Of a stretch of 64,000 nucleotides of DNA, positions 13,582-49,678 are shown one piece after another. The number at the start of each line of letters is the position of its first letter. The first letter of the stretch is position 1. A program made the position numbers and the translations under genes. The notes under the pieces are model-generated. The model was not told where the DNA came from. It was given only the letters and a program-made list of their open reading frames with translations, and did no database searches. This DNA comes from an uncultured Gammaproteobacteria bacterium (GTDB taxonomy: Bacteria > Patescibacteriota > Patescibacteriia > Magasanikbacterales > UBA922), in contig CAYSXR010000001.1 of NCBI GenBank assembly GCA_964435035.1, forward strand, positions 55,259 through 119,258, in the 5' to 3' direction.

Positions 13582-13601
13582 CTTATATTAAGTTAAATAT
13601 T

Positions 13602-17239: not shown

Positions 17240-17240
17240 T

Positions 17241-18320
17241 ATGAAAGAACTCACCGTCTCGCTTCCTCATGGAAAAAAACAAAAGATTTATATAGGCTCA
17301 AATTTGAGTGAGCGTCTGGTGGAAATTACGCGAAAAGAATATGACCGAGTATTTTTAGTAATTGATAAAGAGGTATATAAGAGGTATAAAGTTTTTATAC
17401 AGAATTTAATTTCAAAGATAAAACCAGTGTCAATACATGTGATAAGAGCAGGTTCAAAAGATTTATCAGAAAGTGTAAAACTTATTAATGCAATGGTGGA
17501 GGCAGAGTTGAACCGAAATAGTTGCGTGCTTGCATTTGGAGGAGGATATGTGGGTGATTTGGTAGGATTTTGCGCGTCAATTTACATGCGGGGTATTGAT
17601 ATGCTGTATTATCCGACTACGTTTATTTCCCAGGCTGATACTGTATTAGGAAAAGTTGGTGTCAATTATGATAATCATAAACATATTTTAGGAAGTTTCT
17701 TTTGTCCACGTTACACATTTTGTGATGAAGAGTTCTATCCCAAGAATGTATCAGAAAGTTTTTTATACGGACTAGTCGAAGTATGGAAGCATACACTCAT
17801 CAAAGAAGACAAGATTGTTTCGGACTACGTTGATGGTGCATTATTTCATAAAGAACTTCCTCCATTTGAAACAATCACATATCGATCAGTTGCAGCAAAG
17901 AAATTTTTTGTGCAAAATGATTTTCATGACACGAAAGGTCTGCACAAAGCTTTGAGTCTCGGACATACACTTTCAAATCACTTAGAATCTTTGGCAGAAA
18001 TACACCATGGTGTGGGAGTATTGATCGGTATTATTTTTGATACATTTTTATCAAAAGAACTAGGGCTTATTGATGATAAAAAGATGGGTTCAATATTGCG
18101 AATAGCGTCTCAGTTTAAAGAAAATTTTACAATTCCTCGGTCTATAGCGAGTATACTTAAAAGTAAGAATTTTTTAAGACGTGTTAAGTATGACAAGATC
18201 AATTCCCATAGTACCTTTACATTTGTTTTGCCCACTACCAAAGGTTATGTGATTAAAAAAGATATATCTGAGATAATGGTACAAAATGCGATTCGGTCTC
18301 TAAATAAATTTTTGCTATGA
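17241..18320 (+). CDS. Sugar-phosphate cyclase of the 3-dehydroquinate-synthase superfamily (DHQS/DOIS/EEVS-like)
   Basis: AFGGGYVGDLVGFCASIYMRGIDMLYYPTTFISQADTVLGKVGVNY closely matches the DHQS NAD/phosphate-binding core. GHTLSNHLE and HHGVGV match the metal ligands. Confidence 0.6.
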   Translation: MKELTVSLPHGKKQKIYIGSNLSERLVEITRKEYDRVFLVIDKEVYKRYKVFIQNLISKIKPVSIHVIRAGSKDLSESVKLINAMVEAELNRNSCVLAFGGGYVGDLVGFCASIYMRGIDMLYYPTTFISQADTVLGKVGVNYDNHKHILGSFFCPRYTFCDEEFYPKNVSESFLYGLVEVWKHTLIKEDKIVSDYVDGALFHKELPPFETITYRSVAAKKFFVQNDFHDTKGLHKALSLGHTLSNHLESLAEIHHGVGVLIGIIFDTFLSKELGLIDDKKMGSILRIASQFKENFTIPRSIASILKSKNFLRRVKYDKINSHSTFTFVLPTTKGYVIKKDISEIMVQNAIRSLNKFLL

Positions 18321-19435
18321 AAATACACCTAAAATCTCCAATATCTGACAGTTGGAGACAAGATGCTTTAAAAAAAATAAAAGACATTCAGGAAAAGAAT
18401 CCAGGCATTTCTATAACTAAAGAGCTACTGGGTGGAGCAACGAATACTCTTAAATATTTAGCAACATTTGATGGAGCTAAACTTTTTATTAAAATCGGAG
18501 AAAAAGTCGAACGTGAAAAAGAAGTGTATAAGCAAATAGAAGATAATGATATTTTTTTAAAAAACGTAAATCTGCAAAATGAATCCTCAGATCTTTTAGT
18601 GCTTCCTTATTATGAAGGGGTTTCTTTAGAAGAAAAAACATTACAAAATCCTTCAGAAATAGCTAAGCATACTAAATTAATTATAGAAGTTTTACAGAGA
18701 ACGTTTTCAAAGTATTGGGTGAGGAACATAAAAAAGAACGGAGGTAGTGATTTTGGAGTGAGTTTGTTGAAAAAGCGCTATCTTGAATTAAATAATCATA
18801 TTAATGCAATTTCATTCGAAAGTGGTGATGAATATAGTTTTGATGGTTTTGCTACTCGTCCAGTAGTGATACAGAAAAATAACAAAGAAATTAAGCTCCC
18901 CTCAATAAAGCAGATGACGGAGAAAATTCTCAAACTACTTGATAAACTTAAGCCTTATGATGGGTACGGGATATTAGGTGATTTTCAACCGCCAAATATT
19001 CTGATTTCAAAGGAAGGAATAAAAATAGTAGATATTTCAAATGTTGTAGATGCGGGCGACATTGCGTTCGATATTGGAAAATTTTTCAATTACTATAATA
19101 GATTTTTTTCAATTGCAGTAGTACGTGATGGTCATAAGAATAATAATTCTCATAAAATTACTATTAAAAATGGTATCATATATGTACATCAAGAAAAAGA
19201 TCATTACTCATATGCAGATAAAAAAATCATTGAAACGGTGGAAGAGGATTTTTGTGTGCATGTTGCTAAAGAATTGAATGATTACACAATTTCAGACCGA
19301 GTAAAATTGTATAAATTTGTTGTTTCTCTACTAACCATTAAAAGACATCTACAGTTCGATGGGTTAGATGAAATGCTTATTGGAAATCTTGTTGACGCAT
19401 ATTACGAGATACATAGAAAAGTTTTACATATATAA
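18317..19435 (+). CDS. APH/choline-kinase-fold small-molecule kinase
   Basis: Glycine-rich N-lobe, catalytic ILGDFQPPNILIS and DISNVVDAGD...DIG (Brenner-type motif and DFG-like). Confidence 0.45.
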   Translation: MKIHLKSPISDSWRQDALKKIKDIQEKNPGISITKELLGGATNTLKYLATFDGAKLFIKIGEKVEREKEVYKQIEDNDIFLKNVNLQNESSDLLVLPYYEGVSLEEKTLQNPSEIAKHTKLIIEVLQRTFSKYWVRNIKKNGGSDFGVSLLKKRYLELNNHINAISFESGDEYSFDGFATRPVVIQKNNKEIKLPSIKQMTEKILKLLDKLKPYDGYGILGDFQPPNILISKEGIKIVDISNVVDAGDIAFDIGKFFNYYNRFFSIAVVRDGHKNNNSHKITIKNGIIYVHQEKDHYSYADKKIIETVEEDFCVHVAKELNDYTISDRVKLYKFVVSLLTIKRHLQFDGLDEMLIGNLVDAYYEIHRKVLHI

Positions 19436-24339: not shown

Positions 24340-25623
24340 TTGAAGTTTGTTAAAAAATTATTTCTTATGGAGGATCAGCCTACAGCATTAGATTATCACC
24401 TTAATAAAAAACCTCATAGAACGTATGTGAGCAAATCCTTAAAGAGAACAAATCCCGTGGACAATACCACACATTTTACGAGAATTGTTAGTAAGGTTGT
24501 CGACTGTAAGAATTTTTACGAGATGTATAAAGAAAAGAACTCAGTAGTTTTAAGGTTAAGTCCGGGAGAAAGGCAGGAAGTGATAGCGAAGGTCGATGAG
24601 GATAGTAGGGGATTTTACTTACTTATACAAAGATTTAATAAAAGATCAGGCACCCCTACTCAAGAATCTTTTTGTTTTAGGTCTGATGAATTGAAAAAGC
24701 TTTTAGACTTTATAGAATCCTTGTCAATTATTGATTTTAGTGACAAGAACAAATTTAAAATTGAGGATGCTGCATTATTAGCAGCAAAAAAATTACTCAA
24801 TGATGATCCAGATTTAGCACTAGAAATTATTCAAAATAAAATTACGAAATCTGACGTTGTTGCTCTTGCTTACCGTAAAACTCAGTTGCAGATATTTCAT
24901 AACTTGCTAAATGATGAAAGTTTTTTTGAAATGAAAAAAAACGAATGGAACAAAGCCAGAAACGAAGATGTTTGGCAGTATTTTTTTGAAGAAAATAAGT
25001 GGATTTTTGGTTATGGTCTAAACTTTGTATTTAACTCTTCTCTCGAGGGGAAAAAACTAGAGCAAGTTATTAAAGGGGCAGATTTGGAAAATGCAGGTAA
25101 ACGTGTGGACGCTCTACTCAAGACAAGAGGAATAATTAATTCCCTTTGTTTAGTTGAAATAAAAACGCATCTTACCCCGTTGTTGAAACAAGTAAAAAAT
25201 TCATATCGCTCAGCTGCATGGAGCGTCTCTGATGAATTTAATGGCGGATTGGTGCAAACACAAAAAACTTCGCAAATTGCATTGGAAAATATAAAAAACA
25301 AATTTGAAACTACAGACAATGAAGATAATCCAACTGGTGAAACGATTTATTCTTATAAACCAAAATCGTATTTGATAATAGGAAGTCACCGAGAGTTTCT
25401 GGCAGATAATGGATTCGTTAATAAAGAAAAATATTCTTCCTTTGAGTTATTTAGAAAAAATATTCTTAATCCAGAGGTAATAACTTTTGACGAATTATAT
25501 GAACGAGCTAAATTTATTGTTCATGATAATGAAAAGAGTGCAGAAAAAAAGGATGAAAGTATTGTGGAGGTAGAAGCAGAAGAGACGATAAATGAAATCA
25601 ATATAAGTGATATACCTTTTTAA
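24340..25623 (+). CDS. Protein with a C-terminal PD-(D/E)xK nuclease-like core. Possibly Shedu/DUF4263-like
   Basis: ...RVDALLKTRGIINSLCLVEIKTH...Q gives D-(x15)-E-x-K. The N-terminal 230 aa are unassigned. Adjacent to a tRNA. Confidence 0.35.
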   Translation: MKFVKKLFLMEDQPTALDYHLNKKPHRTYVSKSLKRTNPVDNTTHFTRIVSKVVDCKNFYEMYKEKNSVVLRLSPGERQEVIAKVDEDSRGFYLLIQRFNKRSGTPTQESFCFRSDELKKLLDFIESLSIIDFSDKNKFKIEDAALLAAKKLLNDDPDLALEIIQNKITKSDVVALAYRKTQLQIFHNLLNDESFFEMKKNEWNKARNEDVWQYFFEENKWIFGYGLNFVFNSSLEGKKLEQVIKGADLENAGKRVDALLKTRGIINSLCLVEIKTHLTPLLKQVKNSYRSAAWSVSDEFNGGLVQTQKTSQIALENIKNKFETTDNEDNPTGETIYSYKPKSYLIIGSHREFLADNGFVNKEKYSSFELFRKNILNPEVITFDELYERAKFIVHDNEKSAEKKDESIVEVEAEETINEINISDIPF

Positions 25624-25912: not shown

Positions 25913-27331
25913 ATGAAACGTTCCGAAGGAATGCTCATGGTGCTTCAGGTGCCACTCGACTACATCCTCATCTTACTCGCAGCAGTCACGGCATACGGCA
26001 TACGTTTTTTGCCCTTTTTTGTTGAACTTCGCACGGTACGATTTGATCTTACCCTCCCTGAATTTTTTATACGTGCTGCGGTTGCAGGCTTGGGAATCAT
26101 TCTTATTTTTGCGCTTGATGGACTCTATAGCCCTGATCCAAATAGGAAACTTGCCGAAGTATTGAAGCGTGTTCTAGTCATGTCTACAGTTGGTCTCGCA
26201 TTTGTGGCGCTCGGTATTATATTTCTCTCTGCTCAATTCGAATCACGTTTTCTATTGGTAAGTACGTGGTTTTTCACGATTGTATTTGTATCGGGTGGAA
26301 GAATTCTTATGCGTGCGCTCCGAGGAGTTATGTATCGTCTGGGAGTGGGACTACGAAATGTCATTATTGTAGGTGATGAGCATGTGGGTGAGCGAATTGG
26401 CGAAGAACTTACTCGAAGACAAGAGCTAGGATACCGGGTACTTACGATTTCAAACCATTTCACTGAAAGTGATGCGCGAAAATTTGGGAAACGCGGGATT
26501 GATGAAATTATATTTGCGCATCCGAGAGGGCGGGAAGCAGAAGCGCTCAAAATTATTGAATATTGTACTCGTCATCATATTGTATTCAAATATAGCGCAG
26601 ATATGTTTGCTGCATACGCTGCAAATGCGACGATTACAGCCCTCGCCGGAATGCCAATGGTGGAATTGAAGCGTACACCGCTCGAAGGATGGGGTAAAGT
26701 CATTAAGCGAGTGTCAGATGTCTTCTTTAGTCTTATATTAATCATACTGTGTTCTCCTATATTGCTTCTAGTAGCATTGATTATTTTTATAGAGACTGGT
26801 CGGCCGATTTTGTATAAAAACAAACGAGTGGGGTACCAGGGAAAAGATTTCTTTACCTATAAATTTAGATCCATGTACCAAAAAGATAGTACTGGTCCGC
26901 AATTTGGCAGGGCAGGAACATTTGCTGAAAAAAGAGAAAAGCAATTGATAGAAAAGCAAAATACCCGCACTGGTCCCATATATAAAATTGGAAATGATCC
27001 ACGTATCACACCCGTAGGAAGGTTTTTGAGAAAATGGAGTCTTGATGAATTGCCTCAGTTTTTCAATGTGTTGGTAGGGACGATGAGTATCGTTGGTCCT
27101 CGTCCGCATCAGCCACGAGAAGTAGATCTCTATCGCGATGCATATCCGACCGTATTTGCGGTAAAGCCAGGAATCACCGGACTCTCACAAATTTCAGGCA
27201 GATCAGATCTGGAATTCGAAGAAGAAATGAGACTCGATGTGCTCTATATTGAGCGCTGGACATTGTTCCTTGATTTGATTATCATGCTAAAGACGCCCTT
27301 TATTCTCTTCAAGAAACGAAAAGCGGAATAA
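25913..27331 (+). CDS. Polyprenyl-phosphate sugar phosphotransferase (WbaP/bacterial sugar transferase family)
   Basis: N-terminal TM segments and a C-terminal ...DELPQFFNVLVGTMSIVGPRP... conserved sugar-transferase domain. Confidence 0.7.
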   Translation: MKRSEGMLMVLQVPLDYILILLAAVTAYGIRFLPFFVELRTVRFDLTLPEFFIRAAVAGLGIILIFALDGLYSPDPNRKLAEVLKRVLVMSTVGLAFVALGIIFLSAQFESRFLLVSTWFFTIVFVSGGRILMRALRGVMYRLGVGLRNVIIVGDEHVGERIGEELTRRQELGYRVLTISNHFTESDARKFGKRGIDEIIFAHPRGREAEALKIIEYCTRHHIVFKYSADMFAAYAANATITALAGMPMVELKRTPLEGWGKVIKRVSDVFFSLILIILCSPILLLVALIIFIETGRPILYKNKRVGYQGKDFFTYKFRSMYQKDSTGPQFGRAGTFAEKREKQLIEKQNTRTGPIYKIGNDPRITPVGRFLRKWSLDELPQFFNVLVGTMSIVGPRPHQPREVDLYRDAYPTVFAVKPGITGLSQISGRSDLEFEEEMRLDVLYIERWTLFLDLIIMLKTPFILFKKRKAE

Positions 27332-27420
27332 AAAAGCCTGAAAGGCCGGAAATGCTTGAAATGCCTGAAAGGCTGGGCAGGCTTTTCTATACCCTTTCAG
27401 GCTTTTTTAGCCTTTCCAGC
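27331..27420. terminator. Nested palindromic element: the 15-bp perfect IR aaaaagcctgaaagg...cctttcaggcttttt encloses further gcctgaaaggc mini-hairpins
   Basis: Arms are at 27331-27345 and 27393-27407, with internal 'gcctgaaaggc' repeats. Lies between the convergently or tandemly arranged sugar-transferase and GT genes. Confidence 0.4.
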
Positions 27421-27428
27421 CTTTTAAT

Positions 27429-35756: not shown

Positions 35757-35904
35757 TTTATTAGTGATCAGACAATAAAATTATTCTAATTGACCTAATT
35801 GTTCTAAAAAGATACAAGTAACAAACAATTATCAATTAACAAAAATCAATTTTCTATTTCGAATTTTCAGTTTAAATCTGTTTTAATCTGTCTAAATCAA
35901 TGTT

Positions 35905-36123: not shown

Positions 36124-36178
36124 ATATTACGAAATAAAAAAACAGCCTTGCTATACTCAAGACTGTTTTTTTGTATAG

Positions 36179-36250
36179 TGCCTCCAGAGGGAATCGAACC
36201 CCCATCAACGGTTCCGAAGACCGTAGTTTTATCCATTAAACTATAGAGGC
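36179..36250 (-). tRNA. tRNA-Arg (anticodon TCG)
   Basis: Reverse complement is GCCTCTATAGTTTAATGGATAAAACTACGGTCTTCGGAACCGTTGATGGGGGTTCGATTCCCTCTGGAGGCA, with anticodon loop CTTCGGA. Confidence 0.8.
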
Positions 36251-36254
36251 AATT

Positions 36255-36326
36255 AAGAAAGTTCAAAATTTAAATTTCAAAGGTCAAATTATATTTGAAA
36301 TTGTCATTTAAATTTTGAACTTTCTT
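36255..36326. repeat. Perfect 21-bp inverted repeat (aagaaagttcaaaatttaaat / atttaaattttgaactttctt) with an inner palindromic loop, filling the whole tRNA-Arg/tRNA-Lys spacer
   Basis: Arms at 36255-36275 and 36306-36326. The right arm abuts the encoded CCA of tRNA-Lys. Confidence 0.6.
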
Positions 36327-36402
36327 TGGTGGGTTGCCTGGGGATCGAACCCAGGACCTTGGGCTTAAGAGGCCCCTGCTCTACCAACTGAGCTAGCAAC
36401 CC
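36327..36402 (-). tRNA. tRNA-Lys (anticodon CTT), CCA encoded
   Basis: Reverse complement is GGGTTGCTAGCTCAGTTGGTAGAGCAGGGGCCTCTTAAGCCCAAGGTCCTGGGTTCGATCCCCAGGCAACCCACCA. Confidence 0.85.
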
Positions 36403-36487
36403 ATGAGGGAATAATGACTCACGAATAAACGTGAGCGTGAGTATATACCAAGTGGTATGTAAAATCAAGAGGGTGGGTATCAGAATC

Positions 36488-37249
36488 TTATCCAATAGGA
36501 TCATCACTTTTTCGAGGTGTCACCTGTATTTTGGGTCCTTTCCATGCTTTTACCTTCAGAGCTGCTTCAGCTGCGGCAGTTTGTGCTTCTTGTTTGCTGG
36601 TTCCAAAGCCTTCGGCAACTTTTTCTTTATTAAGAAATATACCAACCACAAAGTTTTTTGCATGATCAGGACCATCTTCGCTCATTACTTTGTAGGTTGG
36701 TGTAATGCCAGTTATTTCTTGTGCTGCTTCTTGAAAGCGTGATTTTGCATCCATCCAAAGTCCTTGTTCAAGAACTTCAGGAAGTTTGGTAATAATAAAA
36801 CGAGTAACAAATTGTTCGGCCATTTCCCAACCACGATCAAGATATATTGAGCCGATTACTGCTTCCAGTGCATTCGCAAGAATATAGTCGCGTGCTTTTA
36901 CATTTACATCCTTTGATTCACCGTGGCTCAAAAACAAAAATTGTTCGAGATTAAGTTCTCTTGCGACTCGTGCGCACATGGTGCCGTTTACGAGTGCTGC
37001 TCGCCAGTTGGTAAGCTCTCCTTCAGGGTTGAGATAGTTTTCAAATAAAAATTCAGTGACTGCAAGTTCGAGAATTGCGTCACCAAGAAATTCGAGTCGT
37101 TCGTTATGTCCGAGAGGGAAATCACGATTTTCATTGAGGTATGATCGGTGAACGAATGCTTGTACTAAGAGTTTTTTGTCATTAAAAACAACTCCGATAA
37201 CATCTTCAATTTGGTGGAATTCTTTTTCTTCGTATACAGCGAGAGACAT
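36488..37249 (-). CDS. rnc: Ribonuclease III
   Basis: HNERLEFLGDAILELAV signature and a C-terminal dsRBD (...GFGTSKQEAQTAAAEAAL). Confidence 0.8.
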   Translation of the reverse strand: MSLAVYEEKEFHQIEDVIGVVFNDKKLLVQAFVHRSYLNENRDFPLGHNERLEFLGDAILELAVTEFLFENYLNPEGELTNWRAALVNGTMCARVARELNLEQFLFLSHGESKDVNVKARDYILANALEAVIGSIYLDRGWEMAEQFVTRFIITKLPEVLEQGLWMDAKSRFQEAAQEITGITPTYKVMSEDGPDHAKNFVVGIFLNKEKVAEGFGTSKQEAQTAAAEAALKVKAWKGPKIQVTPRKSDDPIG

Positions 37250-37377
37250 AAAGGGAAAAGGGGAAATTTCTAATTGTTCTAATTACTCTAAATCAAAGAT
37301 GTGCTGAGATTATTTTTAGAATAATTAGGTCAATTAGAGTAATTAGAATAATTAAAATGAGTATCGATTAATTGATA

Positions 37378-38181: not shown

Positions 38182-38838
38182 TTGCATCTACCCTCTAACT
38201 ACGCTATGCTTACCCATATGTTACACACAGTATCTATCACTGAACCAGAAGCCCTTGATCAAGCTCTAAAAGCTCTGTATAGCGGCTCTACCCTCATTTA
38301 TCCAACTGAAACATGCTATGGGCTTGGTTGTGATGCGAGGAATAGTGCAGCGGTTGACCGTATTTTTAAGATTAAGGTGCGAGAACCTGGTAAGGCAGTA
38401 TTGGTACTAGTGCATGATATTTCAATTATAATGAAATATGTAGAGTGGAATGAGACTATTGATGAATTGGCACGTACCTATTGGCCTGGACCATTGACTA
38501 TTATAGCTCCATTAAAAACATCAGCCCTATCTGAATTGGCAACAGGAGTCGTAGGCGAGGATAGTACGCTAGCATTTCGAGTTACTAGCCATCCGTTTGC
38601 TGCTTCTCTTGCTCAAAGCCTCAAAGCACCTATTGTTTCAACATCTGCAAACATTAGTTCATACTCAAATCCGTATGATATTCACTATATCACGAGTATG
38701 TTTGACGGACGTGAATATGTACCTGATCTTATTGTTGACGCAGGTAATCTACCGCACCACAGCCCGTCAACGATTGTGAAGGTTGAAGTCGATGGTAGTA
38801 AAACGATTCTACGACAAGGGGAAATTATTATTGAGTAA
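38182..38838 (+). CDS. tsaC: L-threonylcarbamoyladenylate synthase (YrdC/Sua5 family)
   Basis: LIYPTETCYGLGCDARNSAAVDRIFKIK matches the YrdC domain signature. Confidence 0.65.
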   Translation: MHLPSNYAMLTHMLHTVSITEPEALDQALKALYSGSTLIYPTETCYGLGCDARNSAAVDRIFKIKVREPGKAVLVLVHDISIIMKYVEWNETIDELARTYWPGPLTIIAPLKTSALSELATGVVGEDSTLAFRVTSHPFAASLAQSLKAPIVSTSANISSYSNPYDIHYITSMFDGREYVPDLIVDAGNLPHHSPSTIVKVEVDGSKTILRQGEIIIE

Positions 38839-38845
38839 GAAATGT

Positions 38846-38948
38846 AAATCCGTGTCTATCCGTCTAATCCGTTCAATCCGCGTTCTATTCTAAAATATTT
38901 GCTTAATGGAACGCGGATGACACGGATCTAGCGGGTTGTAACGGATTT
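38846..38948. promoter_or_regulatory. ATCCG iteron array: four direct (A/T)ATCCG(T/C) repeats, then an inverted set of three CGGAT repeats, forming a large imperfect palindrome upstream of ksgA
   Basis: aaatccgtgtctatccgtctaatccgttcaatccgcgttc ... gaacgcggatgacacggatctagcgggttgtaacggattt. Confidence 0.4.
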
Positions 38949-38968
38949 TAGACATATAAATTATTACT

Positions 38969-39790
38969 ATGCTACTTACTCCAACACAAATAAAAAAACT
39001 CTGTAATGAGTACAGTCTGACTCCGAGTAAAAAATACGGGCAGAATTATTTGATTTCAGAGCTACCAGTACAGAAGATGGTTGAGGCTGCTTGTATCAAG
39101 CCAGGGGATGTGGTGTATGAGATAGGTCCAGGTTTTGGTATTTTAACCTTTGAATTATTGAAAGCTGGGGCGTTGGTAAGAGCATTTGAAATCGAACAAA
39201 AATTAAAACCATATTGGGAATTATATGAAGCAGAATATCCGGATTTGGAAATTGTGTGGGGAAATGTATTGTGGCAATGGGATGAGTATATAAAAAATGA
39301 AAAGCGTCCATATAAAGTAATTGCAAATTTGCCCTATCAAATCACGTCTGAAGTACTAGAAACCATACTTGAATCTTCCAATCAGCCAGAGCAAGTGATC
39401 TGTATGGTACAAAAAGAAGTAGCTGAACGTATTGTGGCACGACCGGGGGATATGTCTATTCTTGCTACTTCAATTCAGTACTTTGGAATTCCAAAGATTG
39501 TAGGAAAAGTATCTCGCGGATCGTTTTGGCCGAGTCCCAAAGTGGATTCAGCAGTGATTTCAATTACCGATATTAAACCTCGAGGCGATAGTACGATTTT
39601 TTTTACACTCGTTAAAGCAGGTTTTCATCATAAACGAAAAAAATTGCTCAATAATATTGTTGAAGCGTATCACATAGCAAAAACAGAGGTTGAGGGGGTG
39701 TTTGAAAGTCTCAATCTTAATAAGAATGTTCGGGCGGAGGAGTTGTCGATTGAAGAGTGGGAAAAATTTTCAAAGTTACTCACAAGATAG
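38969..39790 (+). CDS. rsmA: 16S rRNA (adenine1518/1519-N6)-dimethyltransferase
   Basis: KKYGQNYL, VYEIGPGFGILT (SAM motif) and NLPYQITS match KsgA signatures. Confidence 0.8.
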   Translation: MLLTPTQIKKLCNEYSLTPSKKYGQNYLISELPVQKMVEAACIKPGDVVYEIGPGFGILTFELLKAGALVRAFEIEQKLKPYWELYEAEYPDLEIVWGNVLWQWDEYIKNEKRPYKVIANLPYQITSEVLETILESSNQPEQVICMVQKEVAERIVARPGDMSILATSIQYFGIPKIVGKVSRGSFWPSPKVDSAVISITDIKPRGDSTIFFTLVKAGFHHKRKKLLNNIVEAYHIAKTEVEGVFESLNLNKNVRAEELSIEEWEKFSKLLTR

Positions 39791-40522: not shown

Positions 40523-43500
40523 ATGTTTTTTCTCTCCAAAAGAACAAAGAAGCATTCAGTCATCGCCATAATCGCGGTGGTTATAGTAGTAAATGTACTT
40601 GGTTTTAATTTATTTCGTCCGATCCCCGTTCGTGCGTTTGTCGATGTAAATCAGGGACTTCGAAACGTCACTGATAATATTGGTGATTCATTGCTAGCTG
40701 CTGGACTTGGTGCTCTCGTAAATGGAGCGTCGTATTTCATGCGAAAAATAGCATATGATACGGCAAAATATATCGCTTCGGGTGGAAAAGGACAGGGAGC
40801 ACTCGCATTCCAGGATGGTTTTGGTAGTTATCTAGGAAATGTTGCTGCAGATAGTGCGTTTGATGCGATTGATGAATTGGGAAAACCATTTGGATTGAAT
40901 ATTTGTCAACCTTCTGATATACGATTACAAATCGGTCTTCAAGTGAGTATTTCAAATATTTTTGAAAATGAATTAGATGCACAGGGTGGTCCGCAACCGA
41001 GCTGTACGTACAATCAGTTCAAGGAAAATTGGGACAATGCACGTGATAGTATGGTAGGTGACCAAAACCTACTGGAAAACTTCAATGTATCACTCAAAAC
41101 TTCTCAAGGAAGTTTGGGGGCAGCACTGGGAATTTTGGGAAAAGTAGATAGTATTGTTGCAAAGAATGAACTTGGTGCACAATTGGAACGACTAGAGGGT
41201 GGAGGATTTAAATCGATTACAGGGCTTATTTCGGGTGCGATCAAAACTCCTGCACAAATAACTAAAGAAGAAGCAACTGGACAATTAACCGCAACAGCTC
41301 AGACCAAATCAAGTGCTGAACAAATTGCTGGGCTCTATGGAGCAGATGCACTTTCGATTTTTCCTATGGCTCTGTCAGTATTTGCTAATACATTAGCAAG
41401 TACACTACTTCAAAATGTACTTGAAAAAGGGTTGTTCCCAACCAAAGGGGACCCTTCTTCAGTTGCTGATTTTTATGCATCAACAGTAAATAGAAATCGT
41501 CAGGTTGCAGAGACCGCATTCTCATACCTCATTGCAGGAATTCCTCAAAGACCGTTGACCGCATATGATGTCGTCACTGAGTATAGTACCTGCGGAAGTA
41601 ATCCTGGGCTTAATAATTGTGTTATGGATTCAGGGCTTGTACAGGCTCTTGATCGTGCACGACTAGGAACACCTCTTACGATTGGAGAGGCGATGTCATC
41701 TCAAAATAATTTACTCCACGATGACTGGTTGTTGATAGCAGATCACCTGGAAGGAATTGATCCAAATGTAAGTAAAACAAATCTTACTAATACTAATTTA
41801 GAGTATTGCCACAGTTCTGCATACTGTATTTCTAATGTTGAAAAATTGAGAAAAGCTCGTATTCTCCCTCTTGGATTTGAAATCGCCGTAATGAAATCTC
41901 CTCCAGATAATCCATGGAAATTAGGTGATGTGGTGAGGGGATTTAATACCTGTGATCCGAGTGGTAAACCAAGTGATGCGTATCCTTACTGTAAATTGAT
42001 CGATCCTAATTGGATACTCAAAGCTCCGGAAGCTCGCTGTGAAGCTCGGGTGTCTGGTCCTGAACTTTTGACTGAATCCACTCCAACGAGACGTGAAGAA
42101 TGTGTGGATTTTTCAACATGCCTTGAAACAGATGAGAATGGTCAGTGTAAAGGTTTTGGGTATTGCACCAAAGAAGAAAATATGTGGAACATGCCTGGTC
42201 AGGCTTGCGCTCCACAGTTTAATACGTGTAAAACATATGTTTCTGCGACTGATGGGCAAATTGCCTCATATCTTTCGCGTACTCTCGATGTAGAGTCATG
42301 TAGTGCGGATTCAATCGGATGTCGTGCCTATAGTTTGGAAAAGACAGGAGGGGATACCTGGGTAACCTCTGCTGAGGCTGATCCTGCTACTGCATTTTCG
42401 GGACGCACACAAGCAATTCATTTCACGAATATTGCTCAGTGTCCATCATCGGCTGAAGGATGTTCGCTCTTCATGGATCCAACGATTAGCGATACCTCGA
42501 GTGATGAGGCACGGGTATTCCTAAAAAAAGCTCCTGATTATTTACAATGCTATGACACTAATCTGGTAACTCCAGATGTAGTTGAATGGCCACAAACTCA
42601 GGCTGAAATTGTGAAGCTCAATACACAAAAAGCTGCGGCATGTTCGTCATTTGCTGGGGCGTGTACAGGGGAAGAAGTGGGGTGTGAAGTGTATACTCCT
42701 AAAAATGGAGGCGCGTCGGTTACAGGGATTATCGGAGGAAATAGTTGTCCTACTCAATGTGTGGGGTACGAAACATTCAAGCAAGAAGCTACGGCGTTTG
42801 AATCTGAAAAATTCCCTCTACATTTTATTGCATCAAATGCGAGAACTTGTACTAGTTTGCAAGTAGGGTGTGATGAATTTACTAATATCGGTGTAGCAAG
42901 TGAAGGTGGAGAAGCGCTTGAATATTATACTTCGCTTAAGCGCTGTGAACGCCCAAGTGGGGATAATAGTGAAGTATTTTATTCGTGGGAAGGATCTGAA
43001 AGTCAGGGATATCAATTGAGAAGGAATATTTTATTACCTATTACCTCATCTGATCTAAACTACATTAGTAGTCATGGATTGAATTATAAGTCGGGTGATT
43101 CACTTGAATCAGTATTCCCTGTAGGTTCACCTGCATATGTGGAAGACCTTAAATCAGTCATGCAATCCAATTATGATCAATGTAATCAGGAATCATATAA
43201 TTTGTTGTTGAATAATGTCTTGAATGATTCTCGAGTCGCAGATAATGATTGTCGAGCGCTCTATAATTCAAATGGACAAATTTTTTATCGAGTATTTAGA
43301 AATACCGTTACTGTGTCAAATTCTTGTACTCCTCTTCGAAAGACCAATTCAGAATTAATCGTGGATGAAAATATCACTGCTGGAAATGGCGGACAAACTC
43401 TTTGTGAGGCAAAAGGTGGTGTATGGGGTGCGGGAGAATGTAAGCGTTGTGCGTCTGGTGGAAATTATGAAATAAATTCTGAAGGAGTTGGTTCGTGTGT

Positions 43501-46500
43501 GTACCAATCGATCAAAGCTGAGGCAACAAGTTGTCCTGCAGCTGCAAATGGATGTCGATCATATGTTGGAAACACAGGAAATAATTTGCAAATTATCACT
43601 ACCTTTGGATTTGAGCCAGTAGGAACCGGAGTAGATGCACTTAATGCCGCAAAACAGGGATGGAGCGAAAATACGGTGGTTCAAGCAGAAGCACTGCAGG
43701 TGGGTTTGCATTCTCTCCGAGTAAATGGACAAAGTGCTAATTATGTATTTGATCCAGGGACATTAGAGACAGGTGCTTGGTATGAAATTCGTTTCTCTGC
43801 TCGAGGTAATACAGCATTTGGATTATCAATTGGATTTAGTCAGGGTGGGCAAAATATCGGAAACGCATTTACCTTTGATCCTTCTCTTAACCAGAATGCA
43901 CCCGCGTCTGTTAGTTCACAATGGCAGGAATATCGGGTAGGTCCAGTACAATTTACAGGTAATAGTAATGAGTCTGTACAATTATACTTTGATGGAGCTG
44001 GCGGAAATTCTCAGTTTTATTTCATTGATAATATCGAATTTGCAAAGATTGGTGACTCAATAGATGATCATATCTTCCGTATCAAAAATTCATGGAGAAC
44101 TTCTGAAGGATACGAAGTCCCACGTGCGTGTGATTCAGAGCCTAATAATGGACTTCCTGGTGAATATTTAGGATGTCGTGAGTATACAAACAATGGAGTA
44201 TCCTTCCCATTAACTGGTTTTGATAGGCTTTGTCGTGATGAGGCTGTAGGCTGTCGTGCGCTCGTCGATACTCAAAATACGGTTGAGGGAGTTCGTCCAG
44301 CAGAAAAACAGGCGTATGGGGTAGTATGCAGAAAAGCTATTGGAGTAACCGCGCCAACCCCATGCTCAGTCACACTAACTGAATCACCAACAGTGTCTGC
44401 AACTTATGGTTGTACCGTACCTCGAGGAGAACGCGAATGCCGGGTACTAAACTCTGTGGTAATTCCTGCGGAGGCAGAGGATGTGCCAGTAGTATTTGCT
44501 AATCTGCAGCAGCTTGAGGGTAGTTGTATTTCACTCAATGGATCATGTGCGATCAATAATAATGATAAATTACTTATTGATGAATCTACGGTTGTTGTAA
44601 GAGAAGATTCTGGTTTGATTTATCTTGCTGCACAGGATCAATTTGTGTGTCAGGAAGATAACCTTGCGTGTACACGTGTAGGATTAGAAACAAAAAATGT
44701 AAATGCCAATACGTCGAGCGCCTACAGTTATAGAGATGCGTTTATCAAAAATGATCCACGTATTTATGCAGATATTTTGTGCTCGGGTGACGAAGTAGGT
44801 TGTGCGGCATTCAAAAATGATAATTCACTCGTCTATTTCAAGGATCCAGAAGTAAGTGGAGGTACACAGTGTGTCTATAAAGATAAAGTCACCTTGGGTG
44901 AAGGATTGGCAGCTCGAACGTATAGTGGGTGGTTCAAAGATACAGGGAAATGTGCGGTAAGTAATCAGGAATGTCGGGCTGATGTGGATTGCGGGGGCAA
45001 TGATCGGTGTATTGATATTGGAGTCGTTCCATGTTACGAAAACTATTTGGATTCAGGTAATGAATATAATATCTGGTCACAAGGAAGTTTACAGTACGAA
45101 GGTAATGTGGGAATGTGTGATACTAATAACAACGGCTGTACCGAACTTATTGATCGTGCAGCAATTACCTCTTCGACACCAAATGGAAAATCCTACTACG
45201 CACTGATGAACGATCGACTCAAAGAAAATATTGGTCAGTGTGAAGGTAAAGTAAGTCAAAAAGAAGGGTGTGTATTATTCGATGTAACTGAGAATCCAGA
45301 TAAAATCTTTGATACTTCAGCGTCATATGATGCAAGTCGAGCTGCAACACCGATCGACAGTCTCGTAAATCCGGTTCGCTCACAAAATACAAATGATGCT
45401 AATTTTATTCTTAAAGTTGAACGTGATAGACAGTGCAGTGAATGGCTTGCTTGTGGTAGTTCAATTACCGTGACTGATGAGAATGGAAATGATCAAGTAT
45501 TGTGTCAGCAATATATCGCATGTAGTAAATTCAATTCGACTGGTGAGTGTATTCAGCCAGTGAATAACTCGCGTGATAACTCGCAGATGACTGAAGAAAA
45601 ATATATTGCCCGAAGCACAGGCTGGACTGCTCCGGAATATTCAGGATATTCATTCTTTGGCATGTATAATGCAAGTAATTTTGTCTACCTGTTATTTGAA
45701 GGGAAGACAGAGGCATACATGGGATATGAAATGAGTCATTCATTCTTTGTGGGACAAGATGTGGGTGCAGGTTGTCGTGAAACAGTGTCTACTGCAGGTG
45801 ATACTAATTATGTAAAAGCTGATGGAGCCGTATGTGGATTTGACGCAGGAGGGCGATGCTATCGTCAGCGATGTATTTATCCGATTGAAGGAAGATTTGA
45901 TTTTACTCCAGCCCCAGGAAATGATTTGGCTACATCACAAGCAAATGTAGAAAAAATGTTGATAGAGATGCAGCCAGGAATTTGTAAAGCATATCCAGAA
46001 TCCACCAGTCCATTCTCTGTTGAGGTTGCGGTGAAAAATATTGATGAAGAGGTCGACATGAAAAGAAATGATGAATTTACTCGATTCGACTTTACTGAGA
46101 AAAAAGAATTGTATGAACGTGCAAATGTGTGTCAACCGGGTAGTAATTCTATTGATTGCTCATGTGAATATTTGAAGGTTGAATATAAGAATGGGGTAGT
46201 AGACTATTGGGCAACCAAAGATAGCGAATTAGTAGCTCCAGGTATTTGTACGGGCGGAGATAATGATGGAAATCCATGTACTACAGCAAATGAATGTGGA
46301 AGCGGTAGTATGTGTAGTGTGGTGAAGCAAAAAGGAACATTTATTGGTCAGCGAGGACTTTGTATTGAATATGATTTAAGTCGACCACTTGGAACTTCAA
46401 AATCTACGGCACGATTGCACGAAGCATTTGCCTGCCTCACCTGGCTCCCAATTCAGGTTTCTGCATCCTCAATTGATTTGAATAATATGGATCCTGCTGC

Positions 46501-49500
46501 TGGGTACTATCCAGTAGCAAATTATGACTCTCCACTTGGTGGCGGGCATGCATATTGCACTGAGAGTACCAATCGTGGTGCGGGATATTATAATCCCATA
46601 CTAGACGGATCTGGTTCTGAATCTGATCTTGATGTGTTTGGAAGTAGATTTGGGCCTGCGGGAAGTACAATAAATGGTTTACAAATGTTTCTGTATCGTG
46701 AGGGTGGAGTCAAAAATTTTTATGATGCTGTTAATAATCCAAACGGTGTTTTTGATTCACGTGATCAAACAAATTATGATGTAGATAGAGGAACAGGTAT
46801 TTACGCAGGGCTTATGGCAAAAACAGATACTGATATGGCTACAAAATTGAAAGTGTATCGTTCAATGCAAGCTTGGGCATGGGAAAATATTGGGCCATCA
46901 TCACGCATACTCCGTCTGGATACAAAGGGAGGAGACAGAATCTATTATTACTCTAAAGTTGATGATAAGACTAATGTGTATGGTTTTGCGACATTGACAG
47001 ATGCGGGTAATAGCATTCCAAATGATTCTGGAACTCTCATGCATCCTCCTCGCTTGTTTGAGAATCTGGGAACAAGTCTTGATATTGGCGGATACTACAT
47101 GAATCCAGGTAAGGGGTACTTTTTTCCACTGGTTGGTACTGCAGCACTTTCTCCTGAAATTGGGTTCAGTGGGGATGAAGAACTTATGAAATTTATAGAA
47201 ACAGACGCACAAGTAGAATCTTCTCTTAAAGAAGAGGATTTGGAAAGTGTACATTTTGTACCAATATCATTTCCTGACGGGGCAGAAGGTTTTAATCCAG
47301 CCATCCTTACTCCAAATGTGAGTATTGATTTTGCTGCATTGCGAAGAGTTGAAGCTGGGCCAGCTCGTGCATACCGAGAAGATGTATATGCGTATACAGG
47401 TGCCCCTTCGGGTCCTGGGTGTGATGGACAGCCTAGATATAGAGTATGTGATTCAAATAATCGAATGATTGGACTTTCCTACCTTCTTGAGCGTGGAACT
47501 ACAGGGGTGAGTGGTAATGGATTGCTGTCTTTTGATAACTATTCACAAAGTCGTGAAGGTGAATATTATTCTTCTTATATTGAAAGTTCTGCAGATGTGC
47601 GCCAACGTTCAGAGATCTACCGTCGATATGTGTCATTTATCTTTTCTCCTGATGAGGTTGCATTTCAGAGTTTGAAAACTGGGGATGCACGAATTCCAGA
47701 TATGAATTCTGATCCATTTACTGCTGAATGTAAATTTCCGGGTGGTAAACAGGATCGAAATTGGTTGGCAATTGGCATGGACTTCAATGAGGATGGAGAA
47801 TTTTTGGGCTATATTACACGGTGGTGCATGAATACTGATAATACAGATGGAGAAGCAAATGGTATTCGTTTTGCAACAATTGCTAAGATGCAGGATAGAT
47901 GTCTCGAATATAGTGCCGTGGTGGATAATGAAGTCCCTTTGAACGAAGATAATAATAAGGCATGGACTGATCGTGTATGGATCAATAGTACCTATCGATC
48001 AGGATCAAGTTTGCTTGCGATTCTTAAAGCAGAGACAACTGGCCTAGCGCCTTATGGATCACTCCCACAAAGTGTTGCAAGTGCTGAGATTCTCCGGGCA
48101 AATCCTACAAAACCTGTGCCATACTACGGTTTCCCAGACTACGATTTCGGTGTACCATATCAGTGTGACGGTGGTGATGGATTCAAAAATAATGCAACCC
48201 CCATGTTTGGTTCAAGAAGTTGTGCACGTCCTGCAGGAGAATCAGAGAGCCTTACCAACATTGCTTTCGAGATTACGAGAGATCCAAAAGAAGGGCAGGA
48301 AAAATTACGAGAGCTATTCATGAAATATTATGAAATGAAGAATTTTGTGAATATAGGAAGTTTGCCAAACACAGCAATTGCTGATGCTGATAGAGACAAA
48401 AGCGGTGTGATAGGTGAAATTGGTACAGCTACCAGACCTCCACAGATTTTTTCTCTCAATCCATACACCTGTAGTCAGCGAGGAGGAAATTGTACTGCAG
48501 CAGAAGCAGATGCATTCACCATAAATTTTAGAAACTTTACCACTACTGATTATAATAATGATGGTAGTCCTGATGAAGATACAAATCGACAAGATGGTGT
48601 TGACCCGATTGTTGCTGAGGGAACGTATTATGCGATTGCAAACTTCTTTGCTTATGCTGATGACAATCGGATGCCTATTAAGCGTGTAAAAGTAGAGTGG
48701 GGCGATAATTCATTCCAGAATGATAGTCCTGATGGATTATATAAAAATCGAAAGCCCTATTGTGGTGCAACCGATGATTTTACGTATAACCATAATGCAA
48801 ATACCAATAGTGGACTTGGGCGCTGTGTGGGTACACAAATTACTTGTAGTAATAGTGAAGATTGTCAGTATGCAGGAGTGGGCGGAGTTGCTGTAGCATG
48901 CGAGAGCCCAGGGATTCCTACTCCCTCTCGAGTAGGTGTGTGTAAGTATAATCCAACAGGTCCAGCTACAATTCCATCAGGCACTGCATGCCAATCTGAT
49001 AGTGATTGTCAGCCATATGATGATGCAAACTATTTGACGGAGTGTGTATCGCCAGATCAAGGTAGTGATCATAGTGTTGGGCAGTGTCTTTCGACTAGAC
49101 GTCAAAATACTGAATTTACTAATAATGTAAGTTGCCAACAGACGAGCAATTGCCCGGTAATAAGTGGTTCAACTGCAACATGTGATTTACCTCCACTTGC
49201 TGCCCCTCCTGAAGGACAACGACATTTCGGAGACGCACCACGCGCGTGCAGGAGCCAGTATTTCGAATACTCGCATACCTATCAGTGTACGAGTGCTGAG
49301 GTGAATGCGAAGGTAGGAGATTTACAAAACTCTGGTGAGCTGGGGGATATTGAGGCATACAGACGATTGATTGGTCGAGCAGGAGTTACACCTACAACAG
49401 ATATTTGTGTGTTTAGGCCGAAGGTCCAGGTAATAGATAATTGGGGATGGTGTAATGGGACGTGTGATAGTGGTAACGGCACTCTACGAAATGGTTGCTA

Positions 49501-49678
49501 TGGTGTAAGAGGTAGTTCGTGGACCCAATATAGTAGACTTGATGGTGATATGGTTTCACAATGTGCCCCAGAGTCAGATGCATATTTGAGAACTGATCCT
49601 TGGACGTATTATGGTCAAGACCTAACCGGTGATGGTAAAGGAGATGGAAAAATAATTATTATTCCAACAAGTGACTAG
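40523..49678 (+). CDS. Giant (3051 aa) Cys-rich cell-surface protein, N-terminally membrane anchored
   Basis: Uninterrupted 9.2-kb ORF with genome-typical composition, an N-terminal TM (IAIIAVVIVVNVLGF), very many Cys pairs, and no internal stops. The only opposite-strand ORFs are short and spurious. Confidence 0.6.
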   Translation: MFFLSKRTKKHSVIAIIAVVIVVNVLGFNLFRPIPVRAFVDVNQGLRNVTDNIGDSLLAAGLGALVNGASYFMRKIAYDTAKYIASGGKGQGALAFQDGFGSYLGNVAADSAFDAIDELGKPFGLNICQPSDIRLQIGLQVSISNIFENELDAQGGPQPSCTYNQFKENWDNARDSMVGDQNLLENFNVSLKTSQGSLGAALGILGKVDSIVAKNELGAQLERLEGGGFKSITGLISGAIKTPAQITKEEATGQLTATAQTKSSAEQIAGLYGADALSIFPMALSVFANTLASTLLQNVLEKGLFPTKGDPSSVADFYASTVNRNRQVAETAFSYLIAGIPQRPLTAYDVVTEYSTCGSNPGLNNCVMDSGLVQALDRARLGTPLTIGEAMSSQNNLLHDDWLLIADHLEGIDPNVSKTNLTNTNLEYCHSSAYCISNVEKLRKARILPLGFEIAVMKSPPDNPWKLGDVVRGFNTCDPSGKPSDAYPYCKLIDPNWILKAPEARCEARVSGPELLTESTPTRREECVDFSTCLETDENGQCKGFGYCTKEENMWNMPGQACAPQFNTCKTYVSATDGQIASYLSRTLDVESCSADSIGCRAYSLEKTGGDTWVTSAEADPATAFSGRTQAIHFTNIAQCPSSAEGCSLFMDPTISDTSSDEARVFLKKAPDYLQCYDTNLVTPDVVEWPQTQAEIVKLNTQKAAACSSFAGACTGEEVGCEVYTPKNGGASVTGIIGGNSCPTQCVGYETFKQEATAFESEKFPLHFIASNARTCTSLQVGCDEFTNIGVASEGGEALEYYTSLKRCERPSGDNSEVFYSWEGSESQGYQLRRNILLPITSSDLNYISSHGLNYKSGDSLESVFPVGSPAYVEDLKSVMQSNYDQCNQESYNLLLNNVLNDSRVADNDCRALYNSNGQIFYRVFRNTVTVSNSCTPLRKTNSELIVDENITAGNGGQTLCEAKGGVWGAGECKRCASGGNYEINSEGVGSCVYQSIKAEATSCPAAANGCRSYVGNTGNNLQIITTFGFEPVGTGVDALNAAKQGWSENTVVQAEALQVGLHSLRVNGQSANYVFDPGTLETGAWYEIRFSARGNTAFGLSIGFSQGGQNIGNAFTFDPSLNQNAPASVSSQWQEYRVGPVQFTGNSNESVQLYFDGAGGNSQFYFIDNIEFAKIGDSIDDHIFRIKNSWRTSEGYEVPRACDSEPNNGLPGEYLGCREYTNNGVSFPLTGFDRLCRDEAVGCRALVDTQNTVEGVRPAEKQAYGVVCRKAIGVTAPTPCSVTLTESPTVSATYGCTVPRGERECRVLNSVVIPAEAEDVPVVFANLQQLEGSCISLNGSCAINNNDKLLIDESTVVVREDSGLIYLAAQDQFVCQEDNLACTRVGLETKNVNANTSSAYSYRDAFIKNDPRIYADILCSGDEVGCAAFKNDNSLVYFKDPEVSGGTQCVYKDKVTLGEGLAARTYSGWFKDTGKCAVSNQECRADVDCGGNDRCIDIGVVPCYENYLDSGNEYNIWSQGSLQYEGNVGMCDTNNNGCTELIDRAAITSSTPNGKSYYALMNDRLKENIGQCEGKVSQKEGCVLFDVTENPDKIFDTSASYDASRAATPIDSLVNPVRSQNTNDANFILKVERDRQCSEWLACGSSITVTDENGNDQVLCQQYIACSKFNSTGECIQPVNNSRDNSQMTEEKYIARSTGWTAPEYSGYSFFGMYNASNFVYLLFEGKTEAYMGYEMSHSFFVGQDVGAGCRETVSTAGDTNYVKADGAVCGFDAGGRCYRQRCIYPIEGRFDFTPAPGNDLATSQANVEKMLIEMQPGICKAYPESTSPFSVEVAVKNIDEEVDMKRNDEFTRFDFTEKKELYERANVCQPGSNSIDCSCEYLKVEYKNGVVDYWATKDSELVAPGICTGGDNDGNPCTTANECGSGSMCSVVKQKGTFIGQRGLCIEYDLSRPLGTSKSTARLHEAFACLTWLPIQVSASSIDLNNMDPAAGYYPVANYDSPLGGGHAYCTESTNRGAGYYNPILDGSGSESDLDVFGSRFGPAGSTINGLQMFLYREGGVKNFYDAVNNPNGVFDSRDQTNYDVDRGTGIYAGLMAKTDTDMATKLKVYRSMQAWAWENIGPSSRILRLDTKGGDRIYYYSKVDDKTNVYGFATLTDAGNSIPNDSGTLMHPPRLFENLGTSLDIGGYYMNPGKGYFFPLVGTAALSPEIGFSGDEELMKFIETDAQVESSLKEEDLESVHFVPISFPDGAEGFNPAILTPNVSIDFAALRRVEAGPARAYREDVYAYTGAPSGPGCDGQPRYRVCDSNNRMIGLSYLLERGTTGVSGNGLLSFDNYSQSREGEYYSSYIESSADVRQRSEIYRRYVSFIFSPDEVAFQSLKTGDARIPDMNSDPFTAECKFPGGKQDRNWLAIGMDFNEDGEFLGYITRWCMNTDNTDGEANGIRFATIAKMQDRCLEYSAVVDNEVPLNEDNNKAWTDRVWINSTYRSGSSLLAILKAETTGLAPYGSLPQSVASAEILRANPTKPVPYYGFPDYDFGVPYQCDGGDGFKNNATPMFGSRSCARPAGESESLTNIAFEITRDPKEGQEKLRELFMKYYEMKNFVNIGSLPNTAIADADRDKSGVIGEIGTATRPPQIFSLNPYTCSQRGGNCTAAEADAFTINFRNFTTTDYNNDGSPDEDTNRQDGVDPIVAEGTYYAIANFFAYADDNRMPIKRVKVEWGDNSFQNDSPDGLYKNRKPYCGATDDFTYNHNANTNSGLGRCVGTQITCSNSEDCQYAGVGGVAVACESPGIPTPSRVGVCKYNPTGPATIPSGTACQSDSDCQPYDDANYLTECVSPDQGSDHSVGQCLSTRRQNTEFTNNVSCQQTSNCPVISGSTATCDLPPLAAPPEGQRHFGDAPRACRSQYFEYSHTYQCTSAEVNAKVGDLQNSGELGDIEAYRRLIGRAGVTPTTDICVFRPKVQVIDNWGWCNGTCDSGNGTLRNGCYGVRGSSWTQYSRLDGDMVSQCAPESDAYLRTDPWTYYGQDLTGDGKGDGKIIIIPTSD

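Follow-up and report, generated by a model that had tools for sequence, protein, structure and literature searches.

Does a bacterial gene for ribonuclease III (RNase III) carry its own substrate close by? The question is raised by a 64,000-nucleotide stretch of a Magasanikbacterales genome (assembly GCA_964435035.1, contig CAYSXR010000001.1, positions 55,259 to 119,258), hereafter called the window, whose minus strand reads, in this order, rpmF, nusB, rnc, tRNA-Lys(CTT) with an encoded CCA, a 72-nt palindrome, AATT, tRNA-Arg(TCG) and a strong terminator. A first-pass annotation had described this gene order and the stem with coordinates that ARAGORN, Rfam, Pfam and the sequence itself confirm, and had proposed that the palindrome is a built-in RNase III target serving to separate the two tRNAs and possibly to regulate rnc. 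An enzyme gene with a built-in substrate would constitute a neat, self-contained regulatory module, but the comparative data presented here do not support it. The reading that we favour, with about even confidence, is that the palindrome is a lineage-specific hairpin inserted into the ancestrally few-nucleotide spacer of a conserved Lys/Arg dicistron, where it is a tolerated passenger cleared by RNA processing. It would belong to a heterogeneous population of spacer palindromes in Magasanikbacteria that appear, decay and get replaced, and that are multi-copy in some genomes. Comparison of the loci lends no support to the view that it is a device evolved to couple rnc to the tRNAs.

The spacer between the two tRNA genes (36251-36326, 76 nt) reads, in RNA sense, AAGAAAGTTCAAAATTTAAAT, 30 inner nucleotides, ATTTAAATTTTGAACTTTCTT and AATT. 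The two arms of the palindrome (36326-36306 and 36275-36255) form 21 Watson-Crick pairs out of 21; the first base of the stem directly follows the CCA of tRNA-Lys and the last one lies 4 nt short of tRNA-Arg. The inner 30 nt (36305-36276) fold into two small helices that add 9 pairs and are stacked beyond 2-nt internal loops. The minimum free energy (MFE) of the spacer is -26.6 kcal/mol, against -7.0 +/- 2.2 for shuffled sequences (z = -8.9), and none of 200 shuffles folds equally well; this z-score is the most extreme among the approximately 30 intergenic regions of the window. The palindrome is also the longest perfect inverted repeat of the 64 kb when loops of up to 200 nt are allowed, the longest repeats in 60 dinucleotide shuffles of the whole window measuring 10-16 bp. 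Its G+C content is 17%, compared with 39% for the window, and its arms are composed of short degenerate repeat units of the TTCAAA/TTTGAA type. The same sequence was recovered throughout the region by an independent Logan assembly (SRR12762283, L067), and an assembly artefact is thereby ruled out. The palindrome is thus far beyond chance, and the perfect 21-bp duplex noticed at first pass is borne out.

The sequences searched hold no second copy of the element. No other copy of an arm occurs in the window with up to 3 mismatches, and in a BLAST search covering the window and all related loci described below, the element matched only itself. Scanning the metagenomes of the Joint Genome Institute (JGI) for exact copies of the 21-mer arm gave 7 matches, all of a single arm, in unrelated contexts devoid of tRNAs and attributable to chance; the same scan revealed neither strain variants nor extra copies of the palindrome. 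Only the tRNAs pass in Rfam 15 at both E-value and gathering thresholds, the best score of the palindrome being a meaningless sub-threshold match to a microRNA precursor (27.9 bits against a cut-off of 100). There is no target-site duplication at its flanks, where CCA is followed by AAGAAAG on one side and CTTTCTT by AATTGCC on the other, without direct repeat.

The history of the spacer was traced by scanning the RNase III protein against contigs representing one genome per species. This yielded 59 loci, nearly all labelled Candidatus Magasanikbacteria or Patescibacteria, with RNase III proteins 62-97% identical to that of the window; we refer to the window locus as WIN and to the relatives by L-numbers. 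The order rnc, tRNA-Lys(CTT), tRNA-Arg(TCG) is kept in about 50 of the 59, and spacer counts refer to the 49 loci carrying both tRNAs (WIN and 48 relatives). WIN, L001, L002 and L005 share identical tRNA-Lys and tRNA-Arg, separated by spacers of 76, 51, 16 and 53 nt, respectively. The RNase III of L001 is 97% identical to that of WIN, and that of L002 95%, and the L001 spacer is unrelated in sequence; among the four spacers, only those of L001 and L005 can be aligned with each other, and they share another hairpin, which is in decay in L005. In the sister group formed by L003, L004, L006 and L007, the two tRNAs are 4-9 nt apart. The palindrome is therefore polymorphic in presence and absence at an orthologous site among close relatives, and the WIN hairpin probably arose after the split from the species whose RNase III is 97% identical. 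Conservation of the stem with compensatory changes, which the first-pass annotation had proposed to check in related genomes, is not observed: L001 offers 51 unrelated nucleotides, L002 16 nt and the sister group a handful.

The same comparison disposes of the idea that the two tRNAs depend on RNase III for their separation. Fourteen of the 49 Lys/Arg spacers are shorter than 20 nt (3-18 nt), so a hairpin is not needed to separate both tRNAs. Hairpins are nevertheless recurrent at this position. A folding z-score of -3 or lower was obtained for 24 of the 32 spacers measuring 20-250 nt, and 17 of the 32 form at least 15 pairs. As a rule, such a hairpin is separated from tRNA-Lys by 0-4 nt and from tRNA-Arg by 2-9 nt; by sequence, at least six unrelated families can be distinguished. 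In about seven lineages, the spacer holds instead a short GC-rich hairpin with a U-run, which by eye resembles a terminator. Six species (L029, L032, L037, L043, L044 and L045) share one homologous hairpin family, with 88.6% of cells paired and 5 compensatory pairs, a level reached by 2 of 500 shuffles. Covariation occurs only in that different family, from a distant subclade. The CCA of tRNA-Lys is encoded only in WIN, L011, L018, L020, L029 and L059, and not in L001, whose tRNA body is identical; the sequence immediately after the discriminator base thus turns over as well. Additional tRNA-like copies or fragments occur in the spacers of L017, L019, L043 and L045, the one in L043 amounting to a second tRNA-Lys-like gene, and inserts of 0.4-2.2 kb separate both tRNAs in L052 and L055. 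These additions mark the Lys/Arg junction as a rearrangement hot spot.

Adjacency to rnc is not special either, since equivalent hairpins are found in other co-directional spacers of the window and of its relatives. The nusB-rnc spacer, examined across the 59 loci, measures either 1-30 nt or 75-190 nt, in the latter case mostly as one long hairpin. The leader hairpin of the window (37268-37357, z about -4.8), whose arms consist of CTAATT-like repeats, has homologues in L001 and L006 and decayed versions in L003 and L005; L002, L004 and L007 lack it. A solo 32-nt copy of one of its arms, 94% identical, is located about 1.5 kb away at 35779-35810, upstream of the DUF1653 gene, and hints that repeat units disperse. 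Long hairpins also fill the co-directional spacers at 3818-3870, 27332-27428, 38839-38968 and 59604-59786 of the window. Two of these deserve a description of their own. On the plus strand, 38846-38948 forms a hairpin with 44-nt arms (z -8.1) in which ATCCG/CGGAT helical segments alternate with internal loops, the repeat unit of the arms being ATCCGT; it is located between an open reading frame (ORF) of the Sua5/YciO/YrdC family (38182-38838) and the plus-strand ORF 38969-39790. Also on the plus strand, 27325-27424 is a nested hairpin composed of GAAATGCCT-type repeats, whose outer stem of 17 bp is perfect and ends in a T-run; it fills the 97-nt co-directional spacer between sugar transferase and glycosyltransferase genes.

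Multi-copy behaviour is evident in two of the relatives. Every one of the four successive spacers between rpmF and tRNA-Arg in L011 is a long hairpin (2288-2366, 2846-2968, 3765-3840 and 3924-4014). The 78-nt hairpin found at both 2288-2366 and 3765-3840 is 92-95% identical between the two sites, which differ by a compensatory T:A to A:T change. In the same genome, the hairpin between tRNA-Lys and tRNA-Arg is about 75% alike to that of the rnc leader. L008 contains three copies, 70-78% identical, of an AT-rich palindrome of about 120 nt (122-252, 3745-3860 and 3942-4067), two of which flank tRNA-Lys, the Lys/Arg spacer being one of these sites. A comparison of sense and antisense MFE over 30 spacers, designed to detect G-U asymmetry, gave no signal (Wilcoxon p = 0.89); the hairpins therefore behave as DNA-symmetric palindromes, and an RNA-specific signal is absent. 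Transposases of the REP-associated tyrosine transposase (RAYT, REP standing for repetitive extragenic palindrome) or IS200 type were sought with Pfam in the initial 28 kb of the window, and none was found there. To judge from their sequences, the spacer hairpins are palindromic repeat families of the kind represented by miniature inverted-repeat transposable elements (MITEs), REPs and Correia elements.

This view can be pushed further. The operons of Magasanikbacteria could be punctuated by self-propagating palindrome families whose long hairpins act as RNase III entry sites and cut polycistronic RNAs, much as in phage T7. In the window, rnc has such hairpins on both sides (leader and Lys/Arg spacer). 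We regard this punctuation as an unlikely, speculative extension. If it were true, the Lys/Arg palindrome would be a young member of an undescribed repeat class of the candidate phyla radiation (CPR), and RNA processing in these reduced genomes would centre on RNase III. The more modest proposal of a passenger insertion requires a closer look at how the spacer would be transcribed and what would become of its RNA.

The first-pass annotation had considered rnc and the tRNAs as one probable transcription unit. In favour of this, the consensus scan finds no canonical terminator in the rnc/tRNA-Lys spacer, and the sole strong terminator of the unit lies after tRNA-Arg, where it probably closes the tRNA unit and also serves its convergent neighbour, the plus-strand DUF1653 gene identified by Pfam. 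What speaks against it is a promoter-like motif, TTGATT-17-TATACT, situated between rnc and tRNA-Lys, which is identical in WIN, L001-L004, L006 and L007 amid variable flanks and is also present in L005, where an insertion has moved it upstream. That the motif is kept while its surroundings vary points to an independent tRNA promoter, and a dedicated promoter between rnc and tRNA-Lys is probably present in this clade. In distant lineages, the rnc stop codon often lies within 2-20 nt of tRNA-Lys, and L011 has nothing but hairpin between the two genes, leaving no room for a promoter; co-transcription of rnc with the tRNAs appears likely in all of these. For the tRNAs of WIN, transcription from their own promoter and read-through from rnc are both possible. 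A promoter for tRNA-Arg inside the hairpin was considered as well and rejected: the loop offers a perfect TATAAT, but no acceptable -35 element lies at 16-18 nt, and the scan calls none.

Could the palindrome instead be a leaky intrinsic terminator, an attenuator lowering the output of tRNA-Arg(TCG) relative to tRNA-Lys(CTT)? Terminator-like structures do occur at this site in other lineages, either as the short GC-rich hairpins with a U-run recognized by eye (L018, L021, L022, L028, L033, L047 and L053) or as U-rich tails after some long hairpins (L011, L014, L032 and L037), and in the WIN stem, the outermost 7 bp (AAGAAAG/CUUUCUU) look like an A-tract paired with a U-tract. The WIN palindrome, however, is rejected as an intrinsic terminator: it is not called by the consensus scan, its stem is AT-rich (17% G+C), its effective loop is 30 nt long and its tail, AAUUGCC, lacks a U-run, whereas the terminators found elsewhere in the window (I5, I9, I18 and I19) have GC cores and clean U-tracts. 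A stricter terminator rule calls just one of the 32 spacers. Moreover, there is no room for a separate promoter of tRNA-Arg, so that efficient termination would silence this gene. We consider an attenuator quite improbable here.

The enzyme itself is a credible RNase III. The rnc product matches the Pfam families Ribonucleas_3_3 (7e-38) and dsrm (1.5e-14) and contains the ERLEFLGD signature. An Asn (motif AN..E) takes the place of D114 of the Escherichia coli enzyme in the window protein as in all 53 scorable relatives, and the same Asn is found in the catalytically active RIIIDa domain of human Drosha (ANCFEA). The top matches to Drosha in the PDB were dismissed because they arise from adding up the scores of two RNase III domains; domain by domain, Drosha scores below the bacterial enzymes. 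On the side of the substrate, the helix exceeds the length needed by RNase III, at least about 20 bp or about two turns, with 21 perfect pairs and approximately 30 bp once extended. The first-pass annotation was consequently right in placing a duplex long enough for RNase III beside a gene for a plausible RNase III, and as a prediction from sequence the palindrome is a plausible substrate of the bacterial enzyme.

It does not follow that the substrate is a dedicated one, in the sense of a processing site co-transcribed with rnc, needed for tRNA separation and feeding back on rnc. The length of the helix is in keeping with such a role, and so are the distance of only 85 nt without canonical terminator between rnc and tRNA-Lys, the gene order retained in most loci, many of them with rnc and tRNA-Lys almost touching, and the likely co-transcription in lineages such as L011. 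Several observations go against it. The closest relatives have either no hairpin or an unrelated one, and 14 lineages manage with minimal spacers; the promoter motif conserved in the clade intervenes between rnc and tRNA-Lys; and alike hairpins occupy spacers unconnected with rnc. The feedback component, raised at first pass as possible autoregulation, is implausible on positional grounds. The palindrome starts 162 nt downstream of the rnc stop (36326 versus 36488), beyond tRNA-Lys, and not in the 5' untranslated region (UTR) of rnc; cleavage by RNase P at the 5' end of tRNA-Lys would sever it from any rnc read-through mRNA. A different hairpin occupies the 5' leader of rnc, which is the site of autoregulation in E. 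coli, and this leader hairpin would be the better candidate for any feedback on rnc. All in all, a dedicated substrate seems very doubtful to us.

Under the passenger interpretation, the palindrome would be transcribed within the Lys/Arg precursor RNA, starting at the conserved promoter motif that follows rnc, with a possible contribution of read-through from rnc. Its transcript would fold into an AU-rich helix of about 30 bp to be discarded during maturation. RNase P would cut at position +1 of tRNA-Arg, 4 nt past the hairpin, and the unpaired AAUU fits the need for a single-stranded leader. The hairpin would then persist as a structured 3' trailer of tRNA-Lys, able to stop 3' exonucleases. 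In Bacillus subtilis, RNase Z is disfavoured by an encoded CCA, and the same would be expected here. With RNase Z disfavoured by the CCA and 3' exonucleases blocked by the helix, a double-strand cut would be the simplest clearance: a double-strand-specific endonuclease, of which RNase III is the likeliest candidate, would open the hairpin and exonucleolytic trimming would proceed to the CCA. RNase III action on the hairpin would plausibly be a consequence of the insertion and not the cause of the locus layout. According to the account of Mohanty and Kushner (2008) given in PMC3082872, stable hairpins located beside tRNAs hinder processing in E. coli.

The position of the hairpin can also be read the other way round, as protection. 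A REP-like RNA stabiliser would shield the tRNA-Lys precursor, or the rnc read-through RNA, from 3'-to-5' exonucleases after the RNase P cut. The hairpin does adjoin the 3' end of tRNA-Lys, 0-4 nt off in most lineages, and hairpins are present in many co-directional spacers, as REP elements fill spacers in E. coli operons. A mature tRNA, however, needs its 3' trailer gone, not shielded; the hairpin is absent from many relatives, and the strand-specific G-U signature is lacking. We hold this role to be highly unlikely. Equally remote in our estimation is a DNA-level feature devoid of any RNA role, either a recombination or integration scar or site at a tRNA hot spot, or a cruciform or protein-binding palindrome: the tRNA-like copies and long inserts seen in some spacers and the strand symmetry of the palindromes would suit it, but no recombinase or integrase adjoins the locus, whose neighbours are rnc, nusB and DUF1653 (Pfam), and the hairpins keep a distance of 2-9 unpaired nt from tRNA-Arg and in no case extend into the tRNAs, a pattern that resembles an RNA-processing constraint.

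Several facts nonetheless weigh against the passenger insertion that we favour. The palindrome has no second copy in the 64-kb window, in the 59 loci or in the JGI metagenome scan, so that its own mobility is at most conjectural, and no target-site duplication is evident. The perfection of the stem, 21 pairs out of 21, could reflect selection and not youth. Lastly, the hairpin family homologous across six species hints that such hairpins can be maintained, hence useful, once acquired.

The features of the locus are collected in Table 1. Elsewhere in the window, two identical 14-bp perfect palindromes of the bidirectional-terminator type (ATTAAAAAACACCC/GGGTGTTTTTTAAT) are found 10 kb apart at 3119-3151 and 13599-13633. 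Three segments (8357-11038, 15401-17239 and 24340-25623) have a content reminiscent of defence islands, with a serine recombinase fragment, an OLD-family AAA_15/TOPRIM ATPase, a UvrD-like helicase and a Shedu SduA-domain protein. Over the 2.1 kb of 17240-19367, there is neither an ORF of at least 80 amino acids nor an Rfam match, and a single plus-strand ORF of 3051 amino acids extends over 40523-49678.

Table 1. Features of the rnc-tRNA locus, in minus-strand order (window coordinates)
Feature	Position	Strand	Basis or remark
rpmF (L32)	38167-37865	-	ORF list, Pfam
nusB	37893-37378	-	ORF list, Pfam; 128-nt spacer to rnc
nusB-rnc spacer hairpin (rnc 5' leader), long, imperfect	37268-37357	-	8 + 14 bp around a 2x2 internal loop
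rnc, RNase III of 253 amino acids, catalytic domain and double-stranded RNA-binding domain	36488-37249	-	ORF list, Pfam
rnc/tRNA-Lys spacer, 85 nt	36403-36487	-	
Promoter-like TTGATT (36468-36463), 17 nt, TATACT (36445-36440)	36440-36468	-	37 nt upstream of tRNA-Lys
Small 6-bp hairpin CUCACG/CGUGAG, presumed tRNA-Lys 5' leader	36418-36435	-	Shared by WIN, L001 and L002
tRNA-Lys(CTT), CCA encoded	36327-36402	-	ARAGORN, Rfam
72-nt palindromic spacer element	36255-36326	-	Inverted-repeat and folding analysis; identical in L067
Unpaired AAUU, 4-nt tRNA-Arg 5' leader (RNase P side)	36251-36254	-	
tRNA-Arg(TCG), CCA not encoded	36178-36250	-	ARAGORN, Rfam
Canonical intrinsic terminator (A-tract, GC-containing 15-bp stem, U-tract)	36129-36177	-	Position conserved in relatives

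How does the palindrome compare with known systems? Full-text literature searches on palindromic or MITE-type repeats of Patescibacteria yielded no relevant description, and the repeat class may be undescribed for this phylum. The intercistronic RNase III sites of phage T7, such as R1.1, have a characteristic internal loop, a conserved sequence and proven cleavage. The hairpins punctuating polycistronic spacers in Magasanikbacteria, up to four in a row in L011, recall these sites, from which they differ by being heterogeneous and dispensable across lineages. In E. coli, rncO is a stem-loop in the 5' UTR whose cleavage strips a 5' stabiliser. It shares with the palindrome a long stem near rnc and the idea of an enzyme cutting the transcript of its own operon; the palindrome, however, lies 3' of rnc and past a tRNA, and the leader hairpin at 37268-37357 fits the position of rncO better. 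Comparable, too, are the RNase III sites adjacent to tRNAs. One of them is situated by the tRNA in the E. coli metY-nusA-infB operon, reportedly described by Regnier and Grunberg-Manago in 1989. In Staphylococcus aureus, spacers of tRNA operons and a tRNA and terminator region were co-purified with RNase III, which cuts a tRNA-Tyr/tRNA-Gln spacer in vitro (PMC3386247). Like the palindrome, these sites are long duplexes beside a tRNA in a polycistronic precursor; unlike it, they have been mapped experimentally and are conserved in groups of species, whereas the palindrome is known from sequence and is not conserved even between genomes whose RNase III proteins are 95-97% identical.

TIGR-Tas systems, which are known from the CPR, are arrays of stem-loops repeated in tandem, which bear box C/D motifs and adjoin a Tas gene encoding a Nop domain (PMC12045711). 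The locus was rejected as a TIGR-Tas array on account of its single hairpin, the absence of a UGAUGA/CUGA box pair and the absence of a Tas gene among its neighbours rnc, nusB and DUF1653. A parallel is provided by the intervening sequences (IVSs) of 23S rRNA, which are sporadic, sequence-variable stem-loops in a stable-RNA precursor, discarded and of no known benefit, just as is proposed here for the palindrome. The rRNA genes of the CPR carry many short insertions without ORFs at the sites of RNase III-cleaved IVSs (PMC11270868), and stem-loops of this type are common in reduced genomes and in the CPR (PMC11270868; PMC4990558). The difference lies in the outcome: an IVS interrupts a helix of the mature rRNA and leaves it fragmented, whereas the palindrome occupies a spacer that is removed anyway, leaving the mature tRNAs unmarked.

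The Correia elements of Neisseria (CREE/nemis) offer a precedent for a palindromic insertion meeting RNase III, being co-transcribed with their neighbours and forming long hairpins that are bound and cleaved by the enzyme (PMC2649163). The palindrome is comparable to Correia, MITE and REP elements as a short palindromic intergenic insert whose presence or absence differs among close relatives, and its analogues in L008 and L011 are multi-copy. It departs from them in being single-copy in the data examined and in residing between two tRNAs instead of beside protein-coding genes, and neither a TA or other target-site duplication, nor a conserved core, an integration host factor (IHF) site or a known transposase partner was found for it. 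Overall, the tRNA and operon spacers of this CPR lineage emerge as hot spots for hairpin palindromes with a fast turnover, some of them multi-copy. Such spacer palindromes would be natural candidate substrates of RNase III, and they matter for the annotation and interpretation of intergenic structure in CPR genomes.

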